Shown here: one piece after another, positions 6,273 through 29,264 of the stretch
How positions within the stretch are numbered: the stretch's first letter is position 1
Layout: each line of letters opens with the position of its first letter
Source: a virus
Taxonomy: Duplodnaviria > Heunggongvirae > Uroviricota > Caudoviricetes
DNA length: 30,453 nucleotides
IMG/VR virus record: IMGVR_UViG_2563366799_000004
Coordinates: 1 to 30,453 of that record
Strand: one strand, 5' to 3'
Made by a program: the position numbers and the translations under genes
Notes under the pieces: model-generated
What the model was told of the DNA's origin: nothing
Database searches by the model: none
What the model saw: the letters and a program-made list of their open reading frames with translations, nothing else

Positions 6273-6989
6273 ATGAGCAAAATTACCAGAGAACGCGCAG
6301 CAAAAATTGCAGCAGGCGGCGGATATAACTTTGATGAGGTGGAGGAGCTGGCGCGTATCGCGCTGGCATCGCTCGAAGCGGAGGAGTCAGGGCGAAATCC
6401 CGTGCTGGCCTATGCAGACAGTTACCGCGATATGGCTAAGCAGGGTGTTGAATCTATTCCTGTATGGAGCGTAATTACCGATCTGGAAAGAAATATCGCC
6501 CCGCTATACTCCGCCTCGCCAGCGCCGGTAGTTCCGGCAGAGCTTCATCCTGATACGCTGAAACTGGTGACCGACTTCAGCTCTGCCCTGGCTGAGAAGT
6601 TGTACAAGGCTCAATTAAAATATGGCTATGACGCGGACTGGAAACAAGATGGTTGGCCAAGCCAATGCCAGGCAGACTTTCAACAGCATATAGCTAAGGG
6701 AGACCCCCGGGATATTGCCGCTTACTGTGCATTTATGTGGTATCACGGCTGGAAAACTGAGCCAGCGCCGGTATCGCTGCCTGACGAGCAACATAGCGAA
6801 CGCTTCAACTGGACACTTGGGCAGTGGGCTGAACATGTTGGGGGTCATTACCAGGGAAATGATCCGGCAAACTATTACGAGTTCGGCTCATTCATGGCGG
6901 TCGCTGCAATGCTGTGCCAATTCGGCACCGTTCAGCAAAAAATTGGATGGAACGCCTGCCGCGCCGCCATGGTTAACGCAGGCCAGTGA
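6273..6989 (+). CDS. Cargo protein in the A-to-cos variable locus; C-terminal half loosely resembles DUF550-type prophage proteins (function unknown)
   Basis: 238 aa from ATG 6273 (SD AGGAGTGA); occupies the position of tin/old in P2; motifs KYGYDADW and KGDPRDIAAYCAFMWYHG; family assignment is from memory only. Confidence 0.6.
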   Translation: MSKITRERAAKIAAGGGYNFDEVEELARIALASLEAEESGRNPVLAYADSYRDMAKQGVESIPVWSVITDLERNIAPLYSASPAPVVPAELHPDTLKLVTDFSSALAEKLYKAQLKYGYDADWKQDGWPSQCQADFQQHIAKGDPRDIAAYCAFMWYHGWKTEPAPVSLPDEQHSERFNWTLGQWAEHVGGHYQGNDPANYYEFGSFMAVAAMLCQFGTVQQKIGWNACRAAMVNAGQ

Positions 6990-7297: not shown

Positions 7298-7367
7298 TAC
7301 GTGCGGTGTGGTCAGTTATGGCCGTGTAGGACTTTGCGCGGTGGTGGTGGGTGTGTCCGGGCTGGCG

Positions 7368-8417: not shown

Positions 8418-10130
8418 TTAAAACTCCTCCACAAAACTGCCGTTATCGCCGGTCACTTCCGCGCCGATCGGTTCGTTGTAAATGCCCTGCATAGTTGCCC
8501 ATGCCAGATCGCCGTGATTGCTGCCACGGGCCCGATCGGACTGGTAGGTAATAACGCCGCCTGCGGTGACTTTACGCACGGTCATAAACGACTGTGCGAG
8601 ATCCATCATTCCGGCGTCGAACTCAAAGCGCCCGGCACGAATGACCATCAACATTTTGAGCACCATCGACCGCTTAAGAACCGGTGAATAGTTGTATTTA
8701 ACCGCCTGCGGGAAGAACTTGATCACCAGTTGATAAACCGCATCGCCGATCCCTGTGCCGTCGATAGCAATGTGCTGCACGTTGTAGCGGGTGGTGATCT
8801 CTTTAATAAATTTGGCCTGCTCTTCGTACTCCATGCCGCGTAACTGGTGGCGTTCTACCGCGCGGAACTTGCCACCCGGCACGGCTGGCGGGGCCAGCAC
8901 AACCAGCCCGGCGCTGTCGCCTTTGCCGCTGCTGCCGTTGGGGTCATAGCTAACCCAGACAGGGCGATTACCCAGCGGGCGAGGTGCAAACGGGTTCCAG
9001 TCCGGCCACGCGTCCGGCATGTAGCCATCAACGCCGCAGCCCAAAATTGTGTTGTAGTCGAAGGCGCGTTCCCCTGCTTTAACGAAGGTACATCCGTACA
9101 GGTTGGCGTATTCGTCAAGGGAGTTTTCGCTACGGATTTCATCAATATCAACCAGATCGAAACCGAGCTTCATGGCGTCTTCCAGCGTGACTATCTGGCG
9201 CCAGATGTTATCCCCGCATAGCTTGCCGTTTTTCAGTGCCTTATAACTGGTGTCGATATCCACCCGATCGGATCGGCGGCGGCTTTCATTGAACTGATCG
9301 CCAGTCCAGAAGGGATAGGCTTCATGTTCTTCACTGGAAGGCGTCGAAAAGTAGGTGCGGCGCAGTCCTTTTTGTGTCGCCATGCCTGCGGCCACCGAGC
9401 GCAGTTTGATGAAATTACTGATCCAGAAGGCTTCATCAAGGTACAGATCGCCGGTGTAGCTCTGGGCCGTCGCGGCGGAGGTGCCGAGAAAATACAGGAT
9501 CGCACCGTTGCTTAACTCAATGGCATCACCGCCCTTAAGTTCTACTCCTATTTCCCTTGCCAGCTTCTGAATGAACCGCTTGAACTGGAACGCTTGGGCG
9601 CGGCTGGCTGACAGGAATATCTGATTATTTCCGGTTTCCAGCGCACGCAACAGCGCTTCGCGGGCAAAGTACCAGGTGGCACCAATCTGGCGCGATTTGA
9701 GGATAAAGCGGTTACGCCGGTTCCACTGTTTGAACCAGCGTTTTTGATGCTCGTATAGCGAATCAAAGATCAGGGCGCGAAGCTGAGTTATCTGTTCTTC
9801 GGTGAAATGGTTTTTCGGGGTCTTCGCCTTCTTCTCTTTCTCCTGGTCGCGTCGCTCATGCCGTTCAAAGCGGTCAAGCTGGCGCGCCAGCAGGTCAATT
9901 TCTTTAAAGTCCTTCGGGGTTTTGTCGTCCTTTTCCACTAGGCGCAGGTAACGAACGTGCGTGCGATCCTGCACCCGCTGCATGGGGGTAGCTTTATCCC
10001 ATTCATAGCGGCGGCGCCAACTGTAGATCGTGTTAATGCTCACCCCGATTTCCTTAGAAATCTGAGTGATGCTAAACGCCTGCCAGTAGAGGCTTTTGGC
10101 TTTTGTGCTGAGGTCTTCGGCTGTATTCAT
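8418..10130 (-). CDS. P: Terminase ATPase (large) subunit, P2 gpP-like
   Basis: 570 aa; region ILKSRQIGATWYFAREALL (Walker A-like) and strong similarity to P2 P throughout. Confidence 0.9.
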   Translation of the reverse strand: MNTAEDLSTKAKSLYWQAFSITQISKEIGVSINTIYSWRRRYEWDKATPMQRVQDRTHVRYLRLVEKDDKTPKDFKEIDLLARQLDRFERHERRDQEKEKKAKTPKNHFTEEQITQLRALIFDSLYEHQKRWFKQWNRRNRFILKSRQIGATWYFAREALLRALETGNNQIFLSASRAQAFQFKRFIQKLAREIGVELKGGDAIELSNGAILYFLGTSAATAQSYTGDLYLDEAFWISNFIKLRSVAAGMATQKGLRRTYFSTPSSEEHEAYPFWTGDQFNESRRRSDRVDIDTSYKALKNGKLCGDNIWRQIVTLEDAMKLGFDLVDIDEIRSENSLDEYANLYGCTFVKAGERAFDYNTILGCGVDGYMPDAWPDWNPFAPRPLGNRPVWVSYDPNGSSGKGDSAGLVVLAPPAVPGGKFRAVERHQLRGMEYEEQAKFIKEITTRYNVQHIAIDGTGIGDAVYQLVIKFFPQAVKYNYSPVLKRSMVLKMLMVIRAGRFEFDAGMMDLAQSFMTVRKVTAGGVITYQSDRARGSNHGDLAWATMQGIYNEPIGAEVTGDNGSFVEEF

Positions 10131-10143
10131 GGCAACAGGCTAT

Positions 10144-10231
10144 CGCGCTCGCGCGCGCAACAATATCGCCGCTGGTTGTCGCCTGAGTCCGACAAAGTGA
10201 AGGCTTTGCGCCTTCCGGCCGCAAAGGGAAT
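10144..10231. promoter_or_regulatory. Late promoter region between P and O: TTGT-N12-ACAA dyad (10176..10195), (GC)n tract (10150..10158), second dyad CTTTGCG-N9-CGCAAAG (10204..10226)
   Basis: The TGT-N12-ACA dyad is the known Ogr/Delta-dependent late promoter element of P2-like phages; it sits between divergent P and O. Confidence 0.55.
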
Positions 10232-14302: not shown

Positions 14303-14782
14303 ATGAAAGAACCATCATGGATTGTTGAAGGTCGTAAATATATTGGTGAAAAGGAAATTAAAGGGCCAGAGCATAACCCGCTAATTTTACAGTTCTGGAA
14401 GGATATAAAACGAGGCGGTATTAAGGACGACGAAACGCCGTGGTGTGCGGCTTACGTTGGGGGAGTGCTGGAACGTTCAGGTATCACATCAAGCCGCTTT
14501 GAATCAGCCGCATCTTATCTTAATTGGGGGGTGAAGCTGGATAAACCTGCATATGGTTGTGTGGTGGTATTCAGCCGTGACGGCGGCGGTCATGTTGGCT
14601 TTGTTGTTGGTCAGCAGGCAAATGGCGATTTGATGGTACTGGGTGGAAATCAGAGTGATGCGGTGAATATCCGTGCGTTTTCTACATCGCGGGTATCTGG
14701 ATATCGCTGGCCGAAAGATATTCCTGTCGATGTTCAACCATTGCCGCAGCTATCCGGTACGCGCTCCGTTTCTGAGTCGTGA
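14303..14782 (+). CDS. Endolysin-like peptidoglycan hydrolase (CHAP/NlpC-P60-like Cys-His fold)
   Basis: 159 aa; candidate catalytic Cys (ETPWCAAYVG) and His (GGGHVGFVVG); sits between holin and spanins. Confidence 0.65.
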   Translation: MKEPSWIVEGRKYIGEKEIKGPEHNPLILQFWKDIKRGGIKDDETPWCAAYVGGVLERSGITSSRFESAASYLNWGVKLDKPAYGCVVVFSRDGGGHVGFVVGQQANGDLMVLGGNQSDAVNIRAFSTSRVSGYRWPKDIPVDVQPLPQLSGTRSVSES

Positions 14783-14790
14783 TCATGTCT

Positions 14791-14862
14791 AACCGTGCTG
14801 GCCGTGCGTATCGAGCGCGGTCATTTTTGACAGTGCTCCAGCACGTACGGTAATGACAGTGC
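14791..14862 (+). repeat. ~70-bp repeat element, copy A (partner at 21314..21385)
   Basis: About 80% identity to copy B over ~70 bp in the same orientation; nested inverted repeat ACCGTGCTGG...CCAGCACGTACGGT. Confidence 0.7.
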
Positions 14863-14883
14863 GAGCTGGCGAGAGGTTTAGAT

Positions 14884-15414
14884 ATGGGGTTGTCACGCTG
14901 GAAAGTGATCGTTTGTCTTGTGCTGGCCGCTGCTGCTGTATGGGGTTTTAGCCACTGGCGTTACAGCGCCGGTTACGGTGATGCAGATCAGCACTGGCGT
15001 GAAAAGTGGGCGCAACGTGATGCACGCGACGCCACCGCGCTGGCGCAAAGGCAGGCTGAGGCCAGGACAGAAGAACAACGCCGACAAGGTGAAATTGATG
15101 CGATCAGAAAACAAACCAGTCAGCAGCTTGCTGGCGTGCAGGCTGCTGCCGATCGTGCCAGTGCTGTTTCTCGTGGGCTGCACGCCAAAGCCGACGAACT
15201 CGCCAGAAGACTGGCAGACCGTGAACGTGCCTGCGGTGCCGGAACTCCCGGCAGAAGCGAGGCAAAAGCCAGCGGTGCCGCATTGCTTGCCGACCTGTTT
15301 AAGCGGGCTGACGAGCGAGCGGGGGAACTGGCAAGAGAAGCTGATGAAGCAAGAGCCAGAGGATTAGCCTGTGAGGCTGCGTATGATGCGGTTAAGTCCG
15401 GGGGGAATAAGTAA
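14884..15414 (+). CDS. lysB: Inner-membrane spanin (Rz / LysB-like)
   Basis: N-terminal TM segment, Arg/Ala/Glu-rich coiled-coil region; embedded +1-frame lipoprotein gene. Confidence 0.8.
   Translation: MGLSRWKVIVCLVLAAAAVWGFSHWRYSAGYGDADQHWREKWAQRDARDATALAQRQAEARTEEQRRQGEIDAIRKQTSQQLAGVQAAADRASAVSRGLHAKADELARRLADRERACGAGTPGRSEAKASGAALLADLFKRADERAGELAREADEARARGLACEAAYDAVKSGGNK
15098..15367 (+). CDS. lysC: Outer-membrane lipoprotein spanin (Rz1 / LysC-like), embedded in lysB
   Basis: ATG 15098 in the +1 frame of lysB; signal peptide with lipobox LVGC; proline-rich mature part. Confidence 0.75.
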   Translation: MRSENKPVSSLLACRLLPIVPVLFLVGCTPKPTNSPEDWQTVNVPAVPELPAEARQKPAVPHCLPTCLSGLTSERGNWQEKLMKQEPED

Positions 15415-16513: not shown

Positions 16514-16560
16514 TTGTCACCAACCCGCCACAAGGGCGCCGCGTTGTTTGCGCGCGCGCG
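16514..16560 (+). promoter_or_regulatory. Late promoter element upstream of V: TTGT-N12-ACAA followed by GCGTTGTTTG(CG)5
   Basis: Perfect TTGT-N12-ACAA dyad (16514..16533) and alternating CG tract (16551..16560), ~110 bp upstream of V. Confidence 0.6.
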
Positions 16561-19174: not shown

Positions 19175-20456
19175 ATATTATGCCGTGCTAACCAATGTGG
19201 GCGCGGCGAAACTGGCAAATGCCACGGCATTGGGTGCGCAGGTTGAAATCACCCAGATGGCTGTAGGCGATGGTAACGGCGTGTTGCCGACGCCGAACCC
19301 GGCACAAACGGCGCTGGTTCATGAGCTGCGCCGCAAGCCGCTTAATAGTCTGAGCATTGACCCGAATAACGCCAACCAGATTATTGCCGAGCAGGTGATA
19401 CCTGAAGACGAGGGCGGGTGGTGGATCCGTGAAATCGGTTTATTCGATAAAGACGGCGATATGATTGCCGTAGCCAACTGTGCGGAAACGTATAAGCCGC
19501 AGTTACAGGAGGGAAGCGGGCGCGTACAGGTTGTACGCATGATCCTGATTGTCAGCAGCACCGCTGCCGTAACGCTGAAAATTGACCCTTCGGTAGTTCT
19601 GGCAACCCGACAGTATGTTGATGATCAGATCATCCAGGTGAAAAGCTATGTTGATCAGAAAATGGCAGCGCATGTAGCTGCGGCTGATCCGCATAAACAA
19701 TACGCACCAAAAGAAAGTCCCGCTCTTACTGGCAGGCCGACTGCGCCAACGGCGGAAGGCAAAGATAGTTCTACTCAAATTGCAAATACAGCTTTCGTTC
19801 AGGCTGCTATTGCTGCTTTGGTTGGCTCTTCGCCTGAAGCGCTGGATACGCTGAATGAACTTGCTGCGGCTTTGGGTAATGATCCTAACTTTGCTACCAC
19901 CGTAACAAATTCACTCGCTGGAAAGATGGATAAATCGGCAAATGGTTCAGACATAGAAAACGTTTCTGTTTTTCTACAAAACCTTCGTTTGGGAGCAGGC
20001 GCACCAGCTATCGGTATTCCGTTCTTCTGGCCGTCCTCGGCGATGCCCAATACGGTAATGACTGAATGGGCTGATATGGTGTTTCTGAAGTTCAACGGAG
20101 CCACATTCTCAGCGTCGAATTATCCAAAACTCGCTCTGGTGTTTCCTGCATTAACACTGCCTGAATCACGGGGTGAATTTCTTCGTATCTGGGATGACGG
20201 GCGCGGAGTTGATGCAGGCCGCGGCCTGTTAAGCGCTCAGGGTTATGCCTATCAAAGCCACTCGCACCGATTGCTCATGAGCGCAGGTAGCGCAGGGAGC
20301 GGCAATGTTATTGGTATTGATGGTAGTTTAAATGGAACGCTCACTTACAACATTAACCAACCAGGCGGCGGGCAAATTCAGGCGATTGAAAATGCAGGCG
20401 GCACCGAAACACGCCCACGTAACATTGCATTCAACTTTTTAGTAAGGGCTAAATAA
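19164..20456 (+). CDS. H: Tail fibre protein H (short variant, ~430 aa)
   Basis: N-terminus (KYYAVLTNVGAAKLANA...MAVGDGNG) matches the conserved P2 H baseplate-attachment region; start set at GTG 19164 with GGAG SD; C-terminal half divergent. Confidence 0.8.
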   Translation: MATKYYAVLTNVGAAKLANATALGAQVEITQMAVGDGNGVLPTPNPAQTALVHELRRKPLNSLSIDPNNANQIIAEQVIPEDEGGWWIREIGLFDKDGDMIAVANCAETYKPQLQEGSGRVQVVRMILIVSSTAAVTLKIDPSVVLATRQYVDDQIIQVKSYVDQKMAAHVAAADPHKQYAPKESPALTGRPTAPTAEGKDSSTQIANTAFVQAAIAALVGSSPEALDTLNELAAALGNDPNFATTVTNSLAGKMDKSANGSDIENVSVFLQNLRLGAGAPAIGIPFFWPSSAMPNTVMTEWADMVFLKFNGATFSASNYPKLALVFPALTLPESRGEFLRIWDDGRGVDAGRGLLSAQGYAYQSHSHRLLMSAGSAGSGNVIGIDGSLNGTLTYNINQPGGGQIQAIENAGGTETRPRNIAFNFLVRAK

Positions 20457-21049
20457 TGAAACCTGTTTTCGATGAAAATGGACTGGCAACAGAACCGGGT
20501 GAAATCCGGTGCTATTACTACGACGCGGTGACGTTTGAATACATGGGATGGTCTGACGAATATATTAATACTGGCGTAAGTATGCCCGCCTGTTCCACTG
20601 GTATTGATCCTGGCGAAAACATTCCGGGAAGAGTGGCAGTATTTACAGGTAAGGGATGGAGCCATGAAGAAGACCATCGCAATGAGACTGTTTACTCAAT
20701 CGAAAATGGCGCAGCTGTTACAGTGGATTATATCGGTGCCATCAAAGACGGTTATGTCACGATTTCACCGTTAACGCCATACGATAAATGGGATGGTGAG
20801 AAATGGGTGACAGACACTGAGGCACAACACAGTGCCGCAGTAGACGCGGCAGAAGCACAGCGCCAGTCACTGATTGATGCAGCAATGGCTTCCATTAGTC
20901 TGATTCAGCTGAAATTACAGGCCGGGCGGAAACTGACGCAGGCAGAAACAACCCGACTTAACATTGTGCTGGATTACATTGACGCGGTGACGGCAACAGA
21001 TACCAGCACCGCGCCTGATGTCATCTGGCCTGAACTGCCGGAGGCGTAG
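20456..21049 (+). CDS. G: Tail fibre assembly chaperone G (Tfa family)
   Basis: 197 aa; ATG overlaps H stop (TAATG); C-terminus ...DTSTAPDVIWPELPEA is the Tfa signature. Confidence 0.85.
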   Translation: MKPVFDENGLATEPGEIRCYYYDAVTFEYMGWSDEYINTGVSMPACSTGIDPGENIPGRVAVFTGKGWSHEEDHRNETVYSIENGAAVTVDYIGAIKDGYVTISPLTPYDKWDGEKWVTDTEAQHSAAVDAAEAQRQSLIDAAMASISLIQLKLQAGRKLTQAETTRLNIVLDYIDAVTATDTSTAPDVIWPELPEA

Positions 21050-21260
21050 GCCATTCAATATCGGGTGCTGTTGACGTATCAACACGCATCAGCAGCACAC
21101 GGTATTTCTTCCATTGGGTGAGAGTTGAAGTTTCTTCATCAGTTGCGATACCAGCATCAACAGCATCCTGTCGCCAGGATATTTCAGCATCTGCTTTTGC
21201 ACGAAGGGTGGCTTTCATGTTTGCAGCGTCGGATTTTTGTTGTTCTGGCGTTCGCGGTGG
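21021..21260 (-). pseudogene. Truncated tail fibre assembly (Tfa) C-terminal fragment, convergent with G
   Basis: Minus-strand frame ends ...YRVLLMRVDTSTAPDIEWPTPP, the Tfa C-terminal signature; N-terminal half absent; the first ~30 codons of track ORF 21021..21347 read through the repeat element and are not Tfa-like. Confidence 0.65.
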
Positions 21261-21313
21261 TTCATCAACCCCAGCGACCAGAGATAAGAATTCCGGCACG
21301 CATGGCCGGTTAT

Positions 21314-21385
21314 AACCGTGCTGGCCGTGTGTATCGAGTACGATCACTTTTAACGGTGCTGTAGCACGGTCAGTTATGGTGGTGT
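21314..21385 (+). repeat. ~70-bp repeat element, copy B (partner at 14791..14862)
   Basis: AACCGTGCTGGCCGTG(T/C)GTATCGAG... shared with copy A; nested stem ACCGTGCT/AGCACGGT. Confidence 0.7.
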
Positions 21386-21400
21386 ATTACGGAAGACGAA

Positions 21401-21423
21401 GCGGGCAATGGCCCGCTTTTCTT
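21401..21423 (+). terminator. Rho-independent terminator between G and U
   Basis: GCGGGC-caat-GGCCCGC hairpin followed by TTTTCTT on the plus strand; abuts the U stop codon. Confidence 0.6.
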
Positions 21424-21871
21424 ATATCGAAAGGTTGGTTTTCACCAGAGAGAAGAGATCGTCGGTGGTGGTTTCAGCCAGCTTTTCCCGTATGTCCTCG
21501 CTTACCCGTTTCAGGTTGAGCGTGAAATCAATTTTCTTTGCCTTCCCGTCCTTAAAAAACTCCGTCCGGTTTTGCGTGATCTGCTCAATTACATACATGC
21601 CGTAGATCCTGCCCGTGCCTTCTATCAGGGGCCACGGGCGCCCGGAAAAAGCCATAGTTTCCAGCATGACAAGCGACACATCACCGCCGCTTATTTCGGG
21701 GTACAGCGTGCCGCTGAGTACGAACGGTTCTTCATCTGCGCCGATGAACTGATAGCGCGGGGATTTCCCCACGCGATCGTTTTTGACGTGCCGCCAGGAG
21801 TTGGTTTTATTCGCACTCTGGTAAGGTGTGGTTTGCAGTGAAAAGGGGAACATCCCCAGAATCATCATCAT
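21422..21871 (-). CDS. U: Tail protein U
   Basis: 149 aa; immediately downstream of T on the minus strand, as U follows T in P2. Confidence 0.8.
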   Translation of the reverse strand: MMMILGMFPFSLQTTPYQSANKTNSWRHVKNDRVGKSPRYQFIGADEEPFVLSGTLYPEISGGDVSLVMLETMAFSGRPWPLIEGTGRIYGMYVIEQITQNRTEFFKDGKAKKIDFTLNLKRVSEDIREKLAETTTDDLFSLVKTNLSI

Positions 21872-21880
21872 GATATTGCC

Positions 21881-24826
21881 TTAGACGTGATCGGTCAGTT
21901 GGGAGCGCTTGCGCCGGTCGGCCTGTTGCTTCGCTAACGCAAGTTCTTCGCGCACGCGCCTGATAATGGTTTCTTCATCCAGTTTCTGGCCGCTAAAGTC
22001 GAAGTTAAGGTTATATACATCGCCACCCGGAGCAGGCATCAGCGCAGCGACGGAAGCCGCAGACGGAGACGCCGAAACAGGCATCCGTGCGGCGGGCTTC
22101 TCAACCTGCCAAGGCGTAACGGAAGCGATCAGCGATCCGGCCTGCTGCGTCACCCAATCGGTAAGGGATGGTAGCTGGCGCTGCGCCTGCTTAAGCGGTT
22201 CCGAATATCCGCCACGGATCGGGATATAGGGCTGCTTATTCTTGAAGACAATTTCGCCGGGGCCGTCTTTCTTCTCCGTGGTATTGGTGGCGATCTTGTC
22301 CAGGCTGTTGCTCATCTTCGGCACGATGTTGGCCGGGCCTTTGAGCGAGTTAATTAAGCTTTCCTGCTTTTTCTGCTGGTCAATGGCCTGCTGTTGCTTC
22401 TGGTTGGTTTTCTTCTGCTGATCGTCTTTCGGCGACCAGTTCCAACCCTTTTTAACCATTTTCTTTTGCTGCGGATCCCACTCCCAGACAACAGGGTCTT
22501 TGTGCATACTTTCCGCAGCTTGCTGCGCTGCTTTTGTTGCGTCGGGGATGGCGCCGAGTTTCTCAAGTATCCATCCAATCCCGTTAGCGACGGCTTGAAT
22601 AGGTAGCGTCAGCGCGCTAATTGCGGCCCCTACAACCTTGCCGAACGTTTCCCCGGCACTGGTGCAGGATGCCAGCGCTTCACTGGAAAACTGGATCGGT
22701 TCCAGCAGTTTGGTAAACCATTCCCAGACCCCACTGATCGCGTTGCCGATACTGTCAAAAATCGGGGCCAGTGGTGCAAATACGGCGTTAAATGCCTGCG
22801 TGATTGGTTGAAGGCCAGTCATCAGGCCGGTAAAGAAGCCGCTGAAAAACGCCTGTATGGGTTGCCAGAATTTAATGACGGCCACTGCTGCCGCAGCAAA
22901 GAGCGCAATCAGCCCCCAGACGGGCGCAGAAATACCAGCCAGTAGAGTAATAAGCGGGCCGAATACCATGCGACCGGCGCTTAATAATGCCTGCATAGGC
23001 GAGCCAGCAAGCCACTGGAACGCACCACCAAGGCGCATTACTCCGCCAGTCAGCCGCGCTATTCCTCCTTCCCCGGCCAGCGTGGTGAAGCTGAGGCGAA
23101 CAAGTGCCATCGGGCCCAGCACTGCGCCGATGGACAGCATCAGGCCACCCACGACAACCAGCAACGCGCCTATGGCTGCGGTGACTTTCATGATTGAACC
23201 AACCAGCGCCGGGTTTGCCTCAACCCAACGCCGGACGCTGCCAACCACCTTACTGACGGTAAGCATGATATCCATCAGCGGTTCGCGGAGCGTTTCCCCT
23301 GCTGAACTGAATGCGTTAACCGCGCCGGTTTTGGTCAGTTGCCACTGAGCAGAAAGGGAGTCTTTATTGATATCGGATTCCCGATTCATGGAACCTTTAG
23401 CGGCAGCACCCTGCGTCAGTTCGATCTGGCGCCGAAGTTCGGGCAGGTTGTTCGCAAGTTTCTGTGCATCATCCCCGAACTCTTTACCGAAAATCTGGGT
23501 AAGGTTGGCTACCTGCTTATCTGGTGCAAGTTTTTTGGACGCTTCCAGCACTGAAATGATCGTGCCCATCGCGTCCACTGACATGCTTTTCTGGACTTTC
23601 TCAGCATTGACGCCGATCTCATCCAGAGCACCCAAAAATTTATCGCTTTGTACTGTGGCGATCGACAGTTCACGCACCATTGCATTGGTGGCGCTGGCTG
23701 CAACTTCGGCAGGTGATCCAAGCGTCAGAAAGGTGGAGCCCAGCGCGGCGGCTTGCTTGTAATCCAGTTGGCTGGCAAGCCCGCCAACGCGCTGGAGCAC
23801 GTCGATAATATCGGAGCCTTTCGACTTCGCGTTATCGTCCAGGTAGTTTATGGCGTCGCCCAACTGTTCAATATTCTGGGTAGGGATTTTATACAGCCCG
23901 GCAATCTTACCGAGACTTTCAGAAAGCTGATCGGCGGGCAGTTCAAAGGCTACCGAAGCCTTTGCCGCCATGCTGGCAAAAGCCAGCAGATCGGCTTTTT
24001 GCTTTTGCCACGGATCATTGCTGTTTGCGACGCCCATACGCGCGCCACCTTCGACCAGTGCGGCATAGTCAACAGCACCGTTTGCCATTGGCAGCTTTTC
24101 GCTGGCATCCATGATCGCCCGCTGCATTTCTTCATATTGCGGGGTGCGGTTGCCGCTGTCGTCACGCAAGCCGTTTACCTGTTTGGCTACGCCCTTCATT
24201 GCGTCTTCAAGGCTGCTGTAGGATTTAACCGCAGCGGCGACAGGTGCTAGGGTTGCCGCCCCTACTGCGGCGGTTTTCATCCCCCCGCTCATCATCTTTT
24301 CGCCGGTTTCTTTGGCGCGGCTGTAACGGGCCTGCGCCTGGTTAACAGCGTCAAGCCGTCGCTGCTGTTCGGCAAGCTGGCGGTTGTATTGCGCGGTGCG
24401 CTGGTTGATCTGTTCCGTCGCCCGGCTGGCGCTGCTGATCGCAATGCCTTCGCTGTAGAAGCTGGCCCGCAACTGGTTAAGCTGTGTCTGCTCGCCTTTC
24501 TGCTGCTGGGTTAACTGGCGAATGGCTGCACGTTGCTGATTGAGGGCGGCAACCTGTTCGGCGCTGCGCTGGCGTAACGGGCCATAGGCCGCCGCCATTT
24601 GCCGGGCCTGTTCTTTCGCCTGGGCCAGTTGTTCGGTGGTTTTTTTATTGGCTGCGGTGAGGCGGTCAAAGCTGGTTGCCTGACGCTCAAGCCCTTTAAT
24701 GCTGGTTTTAGTCTGGTTGATTTGAGACGCCAACGCGGCGGCACTCTGGCGCGCCGCGTTGACAGGGCGGGACATATTATTCAGGGCGCTGAATGCCACC
24801 CTGATATTTAAATTGCGGTCTGCCAT
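21881..24826 (-). CDS. T: Tail tape measure protein T
   Basis: 981 aa; Ala/Gln-rich coiled-coil N-terminal part, Gly/Ala-rich hydrophobic central segments; follows E/E'. Confidence 0.9.
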   Translation of the reverse strand: MADRNLNIRVAFSALNNMSRPVNAARQSAAALASQINQTKTSIKGLERQATSFDRLTAANKKTTEQLAQAKEQARQMAAAYGPLRQRSAEQVAALNQQRAAIRQLTQQQKGEQTQLNQLRASFYSEGIAISSASRATEQINQRTAQYNRQLAEQQRRLDAVNQAQARYSRAKETGEKMMSGGMKTAAVGAATLAPVAAAVKSYSSLEDAMKGVAKQVNGLRDDSGNRTPQYEEMQRAIMDASEKLPMANGAVDYAALVEGGARMGVANSNDPWQKQKADLLAFASMAAKASVAFELPADQLSESLGKIAGLYKIPTQNIEQLGDAINYLDDNAKSKGSDIIDVLQRVGGLASQLDYKQAAALGSTFLTLGSPAEVAASATNAMVRELSIATVQSDKFLGALDEIGVNAEKVQKSMSVDAMGTIISVLEASKKLAPDKQVANLTQIFGKEFGDDAQKLANNLPELRRQIELTQGAAAKGSMNRESDINKDSLSAQWQLTKTGAVNAFSSAGETLREPLMDIMLTVSKVVGSVRRWVEANPALVGSIMKVTAAIGALLVVVGGLMLSIGAVLGPMALVRLSFTTLAGEGGIARLTGGVMRLGGAFQWLAGSPMQALLSAGRMVFGPLITLLAGISAPVWGLIALFAAAAVAVIKFWQPIQAFFSGFFTGLMTGLQPITQAFNAVFAPLAPIFDSIGNAISGVWEWFTKLLEPIQFSSEALASCTSAGETFGKVVGAAISALTLPIQAVANGIGWILEKLGAIPDATKAAQQAAESMHKDPVVWEWDPQQKKMVKKGWNWSPKDDQQKKTNQKQQQAIDQQKKQESLINSLKGPANIVPKMSNSLDKIATNTTEKKDGPGEIVFKNKQPYIPIRGGYSEPLKQAQRQLPSLTDWVTQQAGSLIASVTPWQVEKPAARMPVSASPSAASVAALMPAPGGDVYNLNFDFSGQKLDEETIIRRVREELALAKQQADRRKRSQLTDHV

Positions 24827-25287
24827 TTAGTGATCTCCACCACTGCGCGCAGCCGCCTGATCACGCCATAACAGTATTTCCTGTACCGTCATGGCGTCCA
24901 TCTCTACCGGCCGCCAGTGGAATATGACGGCGATATCTGCCATCAGGTCTTCTATGCGTTCGCAGGGGCATCGGATGATTCGTTGCCCGTATCCGTCGCG
25001 GTCAGATCCGAAGAGGGTTGCAAAAAATCAACCACCGCGTTGGCTAGCTGGCAAAAATCCCAGGTATCCATACGGGCAATCTCATCGGCGGTTAGTGCCG
25101 GAGCGGTAACGCGGGGCAGCAGAATAACCAGCGCGTCATAGTTGGAAGTCAGCACGTCATAGGCTTTTAAGCCGCGCAGTGATCCAGCCTGTTTAAGCAC
25201 GGAAGTGATCGCCACTTCGGTGATTTTGGTCTTACCGCGCGTAATAGGGGCGGTAAGAATAACGGTGTTTTCTTTGGTCTTGCTCAT
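24827..25287 (-). CDS. E: Tail assembly chaperone E and its -1 frameshift product E+E' (slippery site T TTT TTG at plus coords 25021..25027)
   Basis: Zero-frame E = 24952..25287 (111 aa). Minus strand reads GAT TTT TTG at 25029..25021; hand translation of the -1 frame after it gives an open extension (...IAVIFHWRPVEMDAMTVQEILLWRDQAAARSGGDH) ending at a TAA that abuts the T start (TAAATG). Confidence 0.75.
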
Positions 25288-25301
25288 GGTGCCGGGTTTC
25301 C

Positions 25302-25817
25302 TTATAGGCCGATGTTAGCGCGGTGTTTTTCCAGCACATCCACACCGGCAACTTTGTAGATCATGTTGAGCACATCAACTTCGATAATCTCTTCGCCGTT
25401 GATGGTCAGCTTGTAATAGGTGTTTTTCAGGGTGTACTTATGCGAAGTGTCATCCCCGACTTTTGCCGAACCGGGATCCAGTTCAGTGAAGCGGCCACGC
25501 GTCTGGATTTCGCACGGTACAGCGTCGCCGGTTGCGTCGTCCTGATAGGAGCCAGCAAAACGTGTTTGCATCCCGTCCGCAGTGGTAACGCCCCATTTTT
25601 TCAGCAATCCGGCATCCAGACCGCCAAGCGTGATATCCATATCCAGGGCGCCAGCGTCGAAGCCAAGATCCACCGCAACCGAACCCGGCATACCACCCGC
25701 CTGGTAGTCTTCGGTTTTTTTTGTGAGTTTGGCGGGGGTGATTTCCGGCACCATGCCGAAGTAGTTATCCCCGTCAAAGAACATATTGAAATATTTGAGT
25801 TTCTTAGGCAGTGCCAT
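25302..25817 (-). CDS. FII: Tail tube protein FII
   Basis: 171 aa; follows the sheath gene; P2 FII-like. Confidence 0.85.
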   Translation of the reverse strand: MALPKKLKYFNMFFDGDNYFGMVPEITPAKLTKKTEDYQAGGMPGSVAVDLGFDAGALDMDITLGGLDAGLLKKWGVTTADGMQTRFAGSYQDDATGDAVPCEIQTRGRFTELDPGSAKVGDDTSHKYTLKNTYYKLTINGEEIIEVDVLNMIYKVAGVDVLEKHRANIGL

Positions 25818-25829
25818 AAGCGCCCCCGG

Positions 25830-27023
25830 TTAGTTATTCACTGCGCTGGAAAACGTAGCGAAATATTCGTCGGTGAACTCCTGTACCAGGCTGAGATTTT
25901 CCAGCGGTGGAACAGGGGTGTAGTTGTACTTAATGGTCAGTTGACCATTGCGCAGGGTTTCCGAGGTATTCGGTTCCGGGTCATACCAGCAGTGGGCGCC
26001 CAGCAGCTTGCCAGCCGTCACATATGAGGTCAGCTTCTTATTGATGCCGTCCACAATGTCCTTAACCAGCGACGGGGTAAGCGGTTTATCAACATAGGCG
26101 AAATGGGCTTCGGCGACGGTATCCGCAACGATCTGCGCGGTTCGGGTATAGCTTTCGAAGATATACGTTTCCGCGTCGCAGGTACGCGATCCCCAGATGC
26201 GGTAGCCGTCCTGCTTGATCAGCGTGGTAACGCCTGCTGCGTTCAGTTCGTCGGCGTCGGTATCGGTGCCCTGCAACGTGAAATAGATATCCCGATCCAT
26301 CCCCAGCACGTTATTAACGGGCACGTTGGAAATGGTTTTATGCCAGCCCTGCGTTGCGTCGATTTTGGCTCGCATCCCAACAGCATGGGCACCCACGGGC
26401 ACGGTGGCATTAGCCCCGGCGTTGGTGTCGTAGCAGATGAAATTAGGCCAGATAACCATCATTTCACGCTGGGAGAATTGCTCGCGGTATTCCTTCACTT
26501 CGGCGATTGTGTTGCAACCGTTCGCTGCCACGTAAGCAAACGCGCGCAGCTTTTCGGCAATGACGCCGAGTTGTGCGGCTACCGCTTCCGTATCAAGCCC
26601 TGGAACAGCCAGTACACGCGGGCGCACACCTACGCGCATTTCGGCAGACAGCAGCGCGTACATGCCGGTAAAGCGCCCGTTTGCATCGGTGCCGCCAATA
26701 ACCAGTTGATCCTGGGTCTGTGCGGTGCCGCCTTCTGGCGGTTCGATATTTGCAGCATCAGCAACGCGGATCACAATGGTTTGCGGGCTGGTCTGGTCTG
26801 AAATCGCTTTCAGGGTGGTAAACAGGGTGCCGGTTTTACCTGCCTTGCCCAGCATGTTAGCCACGCGGGTAATCAGTACAGGGGTATCCAGCGGGAACGC
26901 TGTTTCGTCCGCATCATCAGCGGTGCAGACAACGCCGATCACCGCCGAATCAATGTCGGTGATCATCGTGCTAAGGTCGGTGGTTTCCGTGACGGTTACA
27001 CCGTGATGGTAGTTAGTGGCCAT
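25830..27023 (-). CDS. FI: Contractile tail sheath protein FI
   Basis: 397 aa; motifs LRAFAYVAANGC and YTPVPPLENL match P2 FI; SD GAGG before the ATG at 27023. Confidence 0.9.
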   Translation of the reverse strand: MATNYHHGVTVTETTDLSTMITDIDSAVIGVVCTADDADETAFPLDTPVLITRVANMLGKAGKTGTLFTTLKAISDQTSPQTIVIRVADAANIEPPEGGTAQTQDQLVIGGTDANGRFTGMYALLSAEMRVGVRPRVLAVPGLDTEAVAAQLGVIAEKLRAFAYVAANGCNTIAEVKEYREQFSQREMMVIWPNFICYDTNAGANATVPVGAHAVGMRAKIDATQGWHKTISNVPVNNVLGMDRDIYFTLQGTDTDADELNAAGVTTLIKQDGYRIWGSRTCDAETYIFESYTRTAQIVADTVAEAHFAYVDKPLTPSLVKDIVDGINKKLTSYVTAGKLLGAHCWYDPEPNTSETLRNGQLTIKYNYTPVPPLENLSLVQEFTDEYFATFSSAVNN

Positions 27024-27094: not shown

Positions 27095-27143
27095 TTGTCA
27101 GCAACCTGCAACAATGACGGGGCGTTGTTCATGCGCGCGCGCG
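27095..27143. promoter_or_regulatory. Late promoter element centred between divergent FI and D: TTGT-N12-ACAA followed by GCGTTGTTCAT(GC)5
   Basis: Perfect dyad 27095..27114 centred at 27104.5; intergenic midpoint 27102; alternating GC tract 27133..27143 on the D-proximal side. Confidence 0.6.
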
Positions 27144-28592: not shown

Positions 28593-28625
28593 GCGGCCCC
28601 TAAATGGGGCCGTTATTTATTTCAT
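28593..28625. terminator. Bidirectional rho-independent terminator shared by ogr (+) and the convergent gene 28617..29264 (-)
   Basis: GCGGCCCC-taaat-GGGGCCGT hairpin; T-rich on the plus side (TATTTATTT) and on the minus side (TTTTATAAT). Confidence 0.6.
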
Positions 28626-29264
28626 GTTTATGGCTACAAACCTTGATCGTGTAAGGTTTTCACTTAAATATTGATCGCCACTATCCCCGGCCTTTTTGCC
28701 CCAGATATCACACGAAGATTCACCGCCCTGAAAAACGTAGCCTTTGGTTAAAATGTCGTTAGTCACATAAATATGATCGAATAAACCAGCCTTCCAAGCC
28801 CTGTTAGATTCCCCGTGATTGAAATAGCTGATGCATACGGACTGAACGGCACTTTTCGCCTGTAGTTCTTCTATGCTGTCAAAATTGAATGCAACTACTA
28901 AGGCTTTGTTGTAAATGACTGGTTTAACTGTGAGATTCAGATCTCCGAGCGCCTTGGATAAGGCAAGGGGAAGTTGATTAGTCGCTTCTGAAAAGTCGAT
29001 AGTGGTTGTTAATTGTTCTTTGGGTTTAGCCGCGGGTTGTGTTTGTTCTGTGTTTGTCACTGCTGGCTGGGGTTTATTTTCAGCAACAGCTTTCGGCGCG
29101 ACTGGTGCAACCATTGAACCTATGATTGCTGCCAAGAGGCACACCCCGAAGTAGATAGCAGATGAGCGCTTTCGATTTGGCATAAAAACCCATTTGGGAT
29201 TGATTAGCCCAACCCAAAAAGCGATCCCAGCAACAGCGGCGATAACGGTGATGATTGTTTCCAT
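28617..29264 (-). CDS. Hypothetical membrane-anchored protein (two N-terminal TM helices, Pro/Thr/Gln-rich linker, ~130-aa C-terminal domain); AT-rich cargo gene
   Basis: 215-aa ORF; visibly lower GC than both the prophage and fieF; not recognisable as CpxP or any phage structural protein. Confidence 0.6.
   Translation of the reverse strand: METIITVIAAVAGIAFWVGLINPKWVFMPNRKRSSAIYFGVCLLAAIIGSMVAPVAPKAVAENKPQPAVTNTEQTQPAAKPKEQLTTTIDFSEATNQLPLALSKALGDLNLTVKPVIYNKALVVAFNFDSIEELQAKSAVQSVCISYFNHGESNRAWKAGLFDHIYVTNDILTKGYVFQGGESSCDIWGKKAGDSGDQYLSENLTRSRFVAINMK

Follow-up and report, generated by a model that had tools for sequence, protein, structure and literature searches.

The two copies of a direct repeat analysed here belong to a family of intergenic elements built from 22-bp palindromic boxes. 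This family is confined to one P2-like (Peduoviridae) prophage lineage of Enterobacterales, in which its members fill a few fixed slots beside the 3′ ends of genes and, in most slot classes, separate a uniform from a variable module. The whole stretch of DNA analysed, 30,453 nt long and referred to below as the window, is a P2-like prophage of Escherichia coli, whose closest sequenced phages are the Salmonella phages SEN4 and SEN5 (Peduoviridae, Senquatrovirus); copies of the element with 100% identity are present on E. coli chromosomes. The repeat is not mentioned in the SEN4/5 genome paper or in a 2026 survey of P2-like viruses, no description of the element was found in the literature searched, and the family was apparently undescribed before. 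The explanation that we favour, with a probability of roughly 0.45, is that the element is a REP/BIME-like repeat private to this phage lineage, which would attenuate or terminate transcription, probably stabilise the mRNA upstream of it, and offer homology for the exchange of gene cassettes.

Identification and extent of the repeat

Repeat search of the window returned a direct repeat of 66 nt with 80% identity (14790-14855 and 21313-21378), which was by far the longest of the window, the runner-up having 31 nt at 71%. In the MAFFT pairwise alignment, the similarity began abruptly at TAACCG and faded after ≈ 72 nt. The number of such pairs expected by chance in 30 kb was ≈ 2 × 10−11 (binomial estimate for at least 53 matches of 66 over all position pairs of a 30-kb sequence). 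So, the original prediction of two copies of about 70 bp, ≈ 80% identical, in the same orientation and too similar for chance, was right as to the repeat itself; the proposed length was too short, as homology with the other family members extended from ≈ 14777 to 14876 in copy A and from ≈ 21291 to 21385 in copy B. The intergenic position claimed for both copies was also confirmed, with copy A lying between the endolysin gene and lysB, and copy B between a relic carrying the Caudo_TAP domain and gpU. The neighbouring genes are as follows.

14303-14782: endolysin gene, CHAP/TIGR02594 type; 5′ neighbour of copy A
14884-15414: lysB, DUF2514 Rz-like; 3′ neighbour of copy A
20456-21049: G, tail-fibre-assembly gene, upstream of the relic and copy B
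21422-21871, minus strand: gpU, far-side neighbour of copy B and last gene of the tail operon

The relic is a truncated tail-fibre-assembly gene (21021-21347, minus strand) directly after G that matches only positions 53-130 of the Pfam Caudo_TAP profile. It looks like what is left of a fibre cassette that was swapped or could once be inverted, and it ends at the left edge of copy B.

Box structure of the element

The building unit of the element is a 22-bp palindromic box with the consensus GCACCGTCA-N4-TGACGGTGC, and two or three such units form a cluster in the order box 0, a 16-nt linker (TGGCCrTnnnyATCGA), box 1, a tetranucleotide linker within TGCAG and, often, box 2; the motif TGGCCrT..yATCGAG thus precedes box 1 and TGCAG follows it. 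The start-to-start spacing of the boxes is fixed at 38 and 26 bp. A position-weight matrix of the box had four matches in the window, three of them in copies A and B and one in the large-terminase gene, against 0.3 hits per 30 kb in shuffled sequence. The parts of the two copies and their surroundings, recognised by matrix, half-site, pattern and terminator scans, are listed below (boxes are given without a strand where they are palindromic).

14777..14798, plus strand: copy A box 0, degenerate; right half TAACCGTGC, left half overlapping the endolysin TGA (14780-14782)
14799..14828, plus strand: copy A terminator-like hairpin, TGGCCGTGC-GTATCGA-GCGCGGTCA, then TTTTT
14815..14836: copy A box 1, GCGCGGTCA-TTTT-TGACAGTGC; best matrix score in the window, 25.3
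14841..14862: copy A box 2, GCACGTACG-GTAA-TGACAGTGC; 4 nt past box 1, from the half-site scan
14863..14876, plus strand: copy A right extension, GAGCTGGCGAGAGG, carrying the lysB Shine-Dalgarno sequence
21291..21312: copy B left end, a hairpin or degenerate box, TTCCGGCACGCATGGCCGG; pattern match at 21293-21308
21313..21337, plus strand: copy B box 0 right half, TAACCGTGC, with linker TGGCCGTGTGTATCGA; inner hairpin degraded
21338..21359: copy B box 1, GTACGATCA-CTTT-TAACGGTGC; score 21.1
21364..21385: copy B box 2, GCACGGTCA-GTTA-TGGTGGTGT; score 12.4
21398..21419, plus strand: separate canonical terminator past copy B, outside the repeat, GAAGCGGGCAATGGCCCGCTTTTCTT; from the terminator scan
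7306..7327: possible solitary box, GTGTGGTCA-GTTA-TGGCCGTGT (GTGTGGTCAGTTATGGCCGTGT); pattern match, membership uncertain

In copy A, the degenerate box 0 is matched by the pattern GTCATTTTTRACNGTGCTG at 14782-14800 with three mismatches, and a cleaner form of this box, TGATCATTTTTAACTGTGC, is found in the A copies of the SEN5 type. Box 2 of copy A, whose SEN5 equivalent has a matrix score of 9.4, is paired to box 1 when the whole copy is folded. According to the alignments of A and C copies, the right extension of copy A is homologous to the sequence upstream of the methyltransferase gene in the C-slot copies (the slots are defined below). In copy B, position 21291 is the common left edge, at which homology to SEN5 and to the other B copies starts, and a minus-strand terminator-like site (21309-21293) was called in this left end by the terminator scan. 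The separate terminator past copy B is, in the alignments, conserved beside all copies of slot B in the plus orientation.

The self-complementarity noticed earlier is real: the outer stem, CGTGCTGG/CCAGCACG, and an inner stem are both present. Both are explained by the box anatomy, since the outer stem is the right half of box 0 paired with the left half of box 2, and the inner one is the box-like right half TGGCCGTGC paired with the left half of box 1. Such pairing simply follows from the repetition of palindromic half-sites.

The possible solitary box at 7306..7327 has the portal stop codon (7368) on one side and the P-Q operon terminator on the other, beside the presumed cos region; it scores below the matrix threshold and is conserved in a few related loci. 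Additionally, a box-like palindrome, GCACGGTCATAAACGACTGTGC, with a score of 18.5 lies inside the large-terminase gene (8576-8597) and is conserved in SEN5 (1438-1459), and SEN5 has a further box-like palindrome inside gene A (30524-30545). These palindromes inside the terminase and A genes may be due to chance or may be functional.

Distribution of the element family and its slots

The loci around lysB homologues were fetched and searched with a profile made from copies A and B, which brought up more copies, in either orientation and in further gaps between genes. A scan of viral contigs with the core ATCGRGNNCNGTCAYTTTTRRYNGTRC gave at least 119 stretches and at least 117 distinct contexts. 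The same scan over one genome per species (185,579 genomes) gave 25 stretches, 23 of them from Enterobacterales (Citrobacter, Yokenella, Kluyvera, Enterobacter, Erwinia, Kosakonia, Dryocola, Salmonella, Hafnia, Klebsiella, Izhakiella, Mixta and Raoultella) and two from metagenome bins. Among complete E. coli genomes, 28 of 5426 carried the element, with a median of two places per genome, and in the one carrier genome that was inspected both copies were within the prophage. A host chromosomal repeat (REP, ERIC and similar) was rejected on this count. Among phage records, the element was found in SEN4/5 and in SI7/SW3/SW5 only. So, the conservation in related phages that had been proposed as a check came out clearly.

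Nearly all of the at least 117 distinct contexts fell into fixed slots, as assigned by tblastn of the flanking genes, and the contexts were intergenic and beside gene 3′ ends. The numbers of unique contexts given here are those among the matches listed.

Slot A: endolysin/lysB, sense; 19 unique contexts
Slot B+: G/U convergent junction, sense to G; 23 unique contexts
Slot B-: G/U convergent junction, sense to U; 10 unique contexts
Slot C: after replication gene A, upstream of a D12-class adenine methyltransferase gene of ≈ 227 aa, sense; 47 unique contexts
Slot D: S/V, abutting the Ogr dyad of the V promoter, always antisense; 12 unique contexts
Slot E: just downstream of int, antisense

In slots D and E, both neighbouring genes run opposite to the element. 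The window has the A and B copies only; it contains no methyltransferase gene, and slot E would be beyond its left edge. Since at least five slots are occupied in related phages, the bracketing of the lysB-to-G segment by the two copies, on which the earlier description had remarked, is incidental. We take slot B as the counterpart of Z/fun in P2, slot D as that of orf30, and slot C as lying on the replication-gene side of the old/tin region. The A and B copies retain 14 slot-specific diagnostic positions, which argues that they are old positional orthologues and not recent transpositions.

Beside the E-slot copy downstream of int in Izhakiella australiensis, there is an A+T-rich stretch (locus positions 6350-6470) with repeated GTAACCCG/TTGTAAC motifs. 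Judged from its sequence, this stretch appears typical of integrase arm-type sites, which would place the element inside the attP arm region in some relatives.

Module borders and recombination between copies

For the border test, the 300 nt on each side of the element were clustered separately for every slot.

Slot A: upstream 3 clusters, downstream 1
Slot B+: upstream 7 clusters, downstream 1
Slot B-: upstream 1 cluster, downstream 8
Slot C: upstream 11 clusters, downstream 1
Slot D: upstream 1 cluster, downstream 1

Four of the five slot classes had one uniform and one heterogeneous flank. The variable sides were the lysis cassette, the site equivalent to Z/fun with the tail-fibre genes, and the region after gene A, which is the side of the hotspot equivalent to old/tin. 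The homology of SEN5 to the window begins at 14780 and 21291, i.e., at the left edges of the two copies, and an E. coli relative has an acyltransferase cargo gene inserted between G and copy B.

Internal deletions between direct repeats were seen among the copies. At the same time, one A-slot copy (locus L017, 8897-8991) has the B-slot bases at several diagnostic positions (CTGCAG, GTTCAGT), and this chimera suggests, as far as its bases tell, a gene conversion between two copies of one genome. Together, the internal deletions and the A/B chimera show that the repeats do recombine. In the explanation that we favour, the conserved ≈ 100 bp would serve as homology patches in the exchange of lysis, tail-fibre and cargo cassettes over evolution, which would give the element a causal role in recombination.

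P2-like prophages rank with the most common ones in enterobacteria, and their hotspots show a fast turnover of defence and conversion genes. Against this background, the element is a concrete, testable candidate for a recombination linker combined with a transcriptional insulator, and it could be used as a module-boundary marker in the annotation and engineering of phages.

Predicted effects on transcription

The terminator scan recognised in copy A a hairpin of nine pairs, six of them G-C, with a loop of 7 nt and a run of five T residues. Such a hairpin abutting T5 was present in all 19 unique A-slot copies, with a mean energy of −15.4 kcal/mol; on the sense strand, 99% of its cells were paired, and 23% of these pairs were G.U. 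In slot D, the hairpin of box 1 (−12.2 kcal/mol) stands on the S-sense strand and is followed by a T6 run, which takes the place of the usual linker in most D copies. No terminator of the hairpin-plus-U-run type was found in the C-slot copies and in most B copies, copy B of the window included. The box positions that deviate from Watson-Crick pairing were G.U-compatible on the sense strand of the upstream operon in slots A, B+, B- and D; this strand asymmetry was absent in slot C, and few independent lineages stand behind it.

The criterion used for a P2 late promoter dependent on Ogr/Delta was a TGT-N12-ACA dyad ≈ 55 bp upstream of the start, and no such dyad occurs in or near either copy, so a promoter of this kind was rejected. 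In the window, clean TTGT-N12-ACAA dyads are present only at 10176, 16514 and 27095, exactly at the P/O, S/V and FI/D junctions, where late promoters were expected. A sigma-70 promoter was rejected as well, none being called at copies A and B or in the relatives scanned. A small leader ORF starting from the ATG at 14853 was discarded, as no Shine-Dalgarno sequence precedes it, and the N-terminus “MTV” that it has in common with the C-slot copies is due to DNA homology.

The lysB-R-S genes have no Ogr dyad of their own and need read-through from upstream; thus, copy A must be leaky, and it would be an internal attenuator of the O-to-S late operon. The mechanism that we propose starts from the position of the element in transcribed intergenic DNA on the 3′ side of genes or operons, where it would fold into stable hairpins. 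These hairpins would attenuate or terminate transcription, and the mRNA upstream would probably be shielded from 3′ exonucleases. Copy A, with its hairpin and U5 after the lysis genes, would act as a leaky attenuator inside a long late operon, and copy B lies where the V-G and FI-U operons converge, directly ahead of a strong terminator. In this respect, copy A draws attention to a putative late-operon attenuator that would set the ratio between the transcripts for head and lysis and those for tail completion.

Comparison with known repeat systems

The nearest known counterparts of the element are the REP/BIME sequences of enterobacterial chromosomes and the PeSL cassettes. The phage element resembles REP/BIME sequences in several ways. 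Both are built from imperfect palindromic units that are clustered and joined by conserved linkers; both are found in transcribed DNA outside genes, between cistrons or where operons end; their density is comparable, at about one cluster per 8-10 kb, and both tend to mark rearrangement points. REP units are ≈ 35-40 bp long, occur in hundreds of chromosomal copies and are associated with RAYT (TnpA-REP) transposases; stabilisation of mRNA and the binding of gyrase or IHF are further REP/BIME properties. In contrast, the phage element has a 22-bp unit without sequence relationship to REP, is present in one to four copies per genome and is absent from the E. coli chromosome outside the prophage. 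No transposase was noticed among the Pfam-scanned proteins, the annotated genes of SEN5 or those of the E. coli relative. Lacking a chromosome-wide distribution and a noticed RAYT, the element is not a REP; rather, it shows that a phage genome of 30 kb can have a repeat family of its own with an architecture of the REP/BIME type.

The PeSL cassettes of T4-type phages are intergenic repeats of ≈ 100 bp with a terminating stem-loop, situated beside variable genes, and they were proposed to be linkers for modular shuffling (Arbiol, Comeau et al. 2010; PMC2839356). A terminator stem-loop and a variable gene flank are also found in the present element. However, the defining feature of PeSLs is a strong sigma-70 early promoter, which was not detected here; PeSLs are co-oriented with transcription and number dozens, whereas this element consists of repeated palindromic boxes and occurs in both orientations. 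Having no promoter, it is not a PeSL.

The A-slot copies are like intrinsic terminators in their G+C-rich stem of 9 bp, 7-nt loop and U5, but the conserved sequence runs ≈ 60 nt past the terminator, and copy B and the C-slot copies have no competent hairpin followed by a U-run. Another likeness is to the RNase III sites of T7, which are also repeated intergenic hairpins, as the B-type copies can form two helices of ≈ 9 bp with a 4 × 4 internal loop. The T7 sites are all sense-oriented and were shown to be cleaved, whereas the orientation of the present element varies. Finally, in the cluster A mycobacteriophages, which are temperate, a single site, the stoperator, is likewise repeated many times in short gaps between genes. 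Each stoperator is an asymmetric 13-bp version of the immunity operator and is bound by the repressor, and all lie in one orientation; unlike in those phages, the immunity region here has no box.

Folding, sequence conservation and a protein-bound alternative

On the plus strand, copies A and B of the window folded much better than shuffled sequences (z = −4.0 and −3.2, respectively). Copy B folded equally well on the minus strand (z = −4.0), which is to be expected of a cluster of palindromes. The hairpin of copy A had an energy of −15.7 kcal/mol against −7.1 kcal/mol for the inner hairpin of copy B, which is essentially lost (z = −0.17). In the 37 distinct A and B copies, the nested stems of the original prediction were 86% paired, compared with 85.4% in the shuffle control, and the long hairpin based on the boxes was 83% paired; for both models, pairing was far above the slid controls and equal to the shuffle controls. 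Boxes 1 and 2 of the B type can form one long hairpin, in which the L1:R2 helix is 89% paired, and the central position of the boxes is mostly mismatched. No compensatory changes were found in these 37 copies (0/14 and 0/18 pairs altered on both sides). Minimum-energy folds differed between the slots, and a single consensus RNA fold was rejected on the disagreement of the slot folds and the absence of covariation. Thus, the original prediction had named the right pair of options, a structured RNA or a protein-binding site; what did not survive was one conserved nested fold supported by covarying pairs.

The loops and linkers (TTTT, ATCGAG, TGGCC, TGCAG) were conserved at least as well as the stems, with the proviso that conservation estimates for the core are inflated by the retrieval of many copies with a core pattern, and they were kept between phages whose A proteins are only ≈ 40-46% identical. 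Conserved loops, linkers and half-sites, together with uncompensated changes in the stems, are what one would expect of recognition by a sequence-specific protein rather than of a bare hairpin.

The main alternative, possible if somewhat unlikely, is that the boxes are DNA operators for a dimeric sequence-specific protein of the phage or of the host, in the latter case for instance gyrase or a nucleoid protein, as at BIMEs. Bound by it, the boxes would act independently of orientation as a roadblock, an insulator or a topological/architectural site at the borders of modules. The occurrence of the same half-site in boxes 0, 1 and 2 of all slots and in both orientations, the conservation of the non-palindromic linkers and of the loop, the stem substitutions that go uncompensated, the fixed spacing of 38 and 26 bp, and the antisense placement of the D and E copies would all suit such a site. 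However, no candidate binding protein was found in the loci, which were fetched in part; the window keeps copies A and B, yet has no methyltransferase gene, which is the neighbour of the commonest copy; and the G.U asymmetry in favour of the sense strand is not expected of a DNA site. The immunity region at 1395-1483 (Pc/Pe) has no box, which makes the immunity repressor C an unlikely binder, and an operator of that repressor was rejected on this ground. Resemblances to known sites were dismissed after a comparison by eye with consensus sequences: for IHF, Fis, LexA, CRP, NtrC and Tus/Ter, no more than 6-8 bases fitted, and the same was true, again by eye, of XerCD dif, the hix/gix invertase sites, integron attC and the type I-E/I-F CRISPR repeats. 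The REP/BIME-like explanation and a protein-bound one would not be mutually exclusive, as REP/BIME elements themselves illustrate.

A stronger proposition, which we consider rather doubtful, is that boxes and linkers are the site of a dedicated trans-acting factor, of phage or host, that marks the borders of cassettes and promotes or channels recombination or insulates transcription. The cassettes concerned would, with the same reserve, be those for lysis and tail fibres and the cargo hotspots that follow genes A and G. If this were true, P2-like phages would have a cassette-border system comparable to the attC sites of integrons, and the border factor could explain the high level of gene exchange at P2 hotspots. 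The mechanism of this rapid exchange was stated to be unknown by Rousset et al. (2022; PMC9122126).

Improbable alternatives

It is quite improbable that the element works as a terminator-promoter cassette like the PeSLs of T4, with the hairpin stopping transcription and a TTGACA-18 nt-TAATGA promoter restarting it for lysB-R-S. Copy A does have a perfect TTGACA (14826-14831) directly past the U-run, with a stem-loop in the spacer, and this hexamer occurs only in the A copies, the ones that need downstream expression; PeSLs, too, have stem-loops between their −35 and −10 boxes (PMC2839356). Nevertheless, the −10 candidates (TAATGA, TATTGA and TTATGG) do not end in the invariant T, neither copy is called by the promoter scan, and copy B would fire straight into a terminator. 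The −35-like hexamer is, moreover, part of the box half-site, which reads TTAACA, TTAACG or TTGGCG elsewhere.

We also give very little credit to a selfish or relic sequence without phage function, be it a MITE-like element or the leftovers of an old duplication. The palindromic ends, the occurrence of either orientation at the G/U junction and the filling of only some slots in each phage could be read in this way, but the copies occupy the same few slots with slot-specific diagnostic bases, as positional orthologues do; the window contains no transposase; and the core persists from Hafnia to Salmonella, while the neighbouring proteins fall to ≈ 40% identity. No target-site duplication was seen when filled and empty S/V sites were compared, and a MITE was rejected on the fixed slots, the lack of a target duplication and the lack of a transposase.

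The least probable explanation, with hardly any weight left, is a discrete structured RNA, i.e., a small or cis-regulatory RNA with one conserved nested fold, for which the plus-strand folding of both window copies much better than shuffles and one pair with a G-C/G-U/A-U series (columns 47-57) can be cited, but which is opposed by the lack of any pair changed on both sides, the variation of the minimum-energy folds by slot, the equally good minus-strand fold of copy B with copies in both orientations, and the absence of a promoter and of an Rfam match (with Rfam 15, nothing in the window reached the gathering score, and only SorX and asponA appeared at E ≈ 1, which is chance level).

Additional features of the window

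The tail operon FI-FII-E-T-U (21422-27023, minus strand) is inverted in comparison with P2. A single Ogr-type dyad, TTGTCAGCAACCTGCAACAA (27095-27114), stands between the divergent genes FI (ATG 27023, minus strand) and D (ATG 27181, plus strand), so this one activator site may serve two late promoters. At ≈ 30 bp from each Ogr dyad, on the promoter side, there is an alternating (CG)n tract, GCGCGCGCG (10150-10158, 16550-16560 and 27133-27143), which is a feature common to the late promoters of this lineage. Two cargo-like genes without a Pfam match were noted as candidates for moron or defence genes: one of 238 aa (6273-6989), located between gene A and the portal gene in the hotspot equivalent to old/tin, and one of 215 aa (28617-29264, minus strand), which follows ogr.
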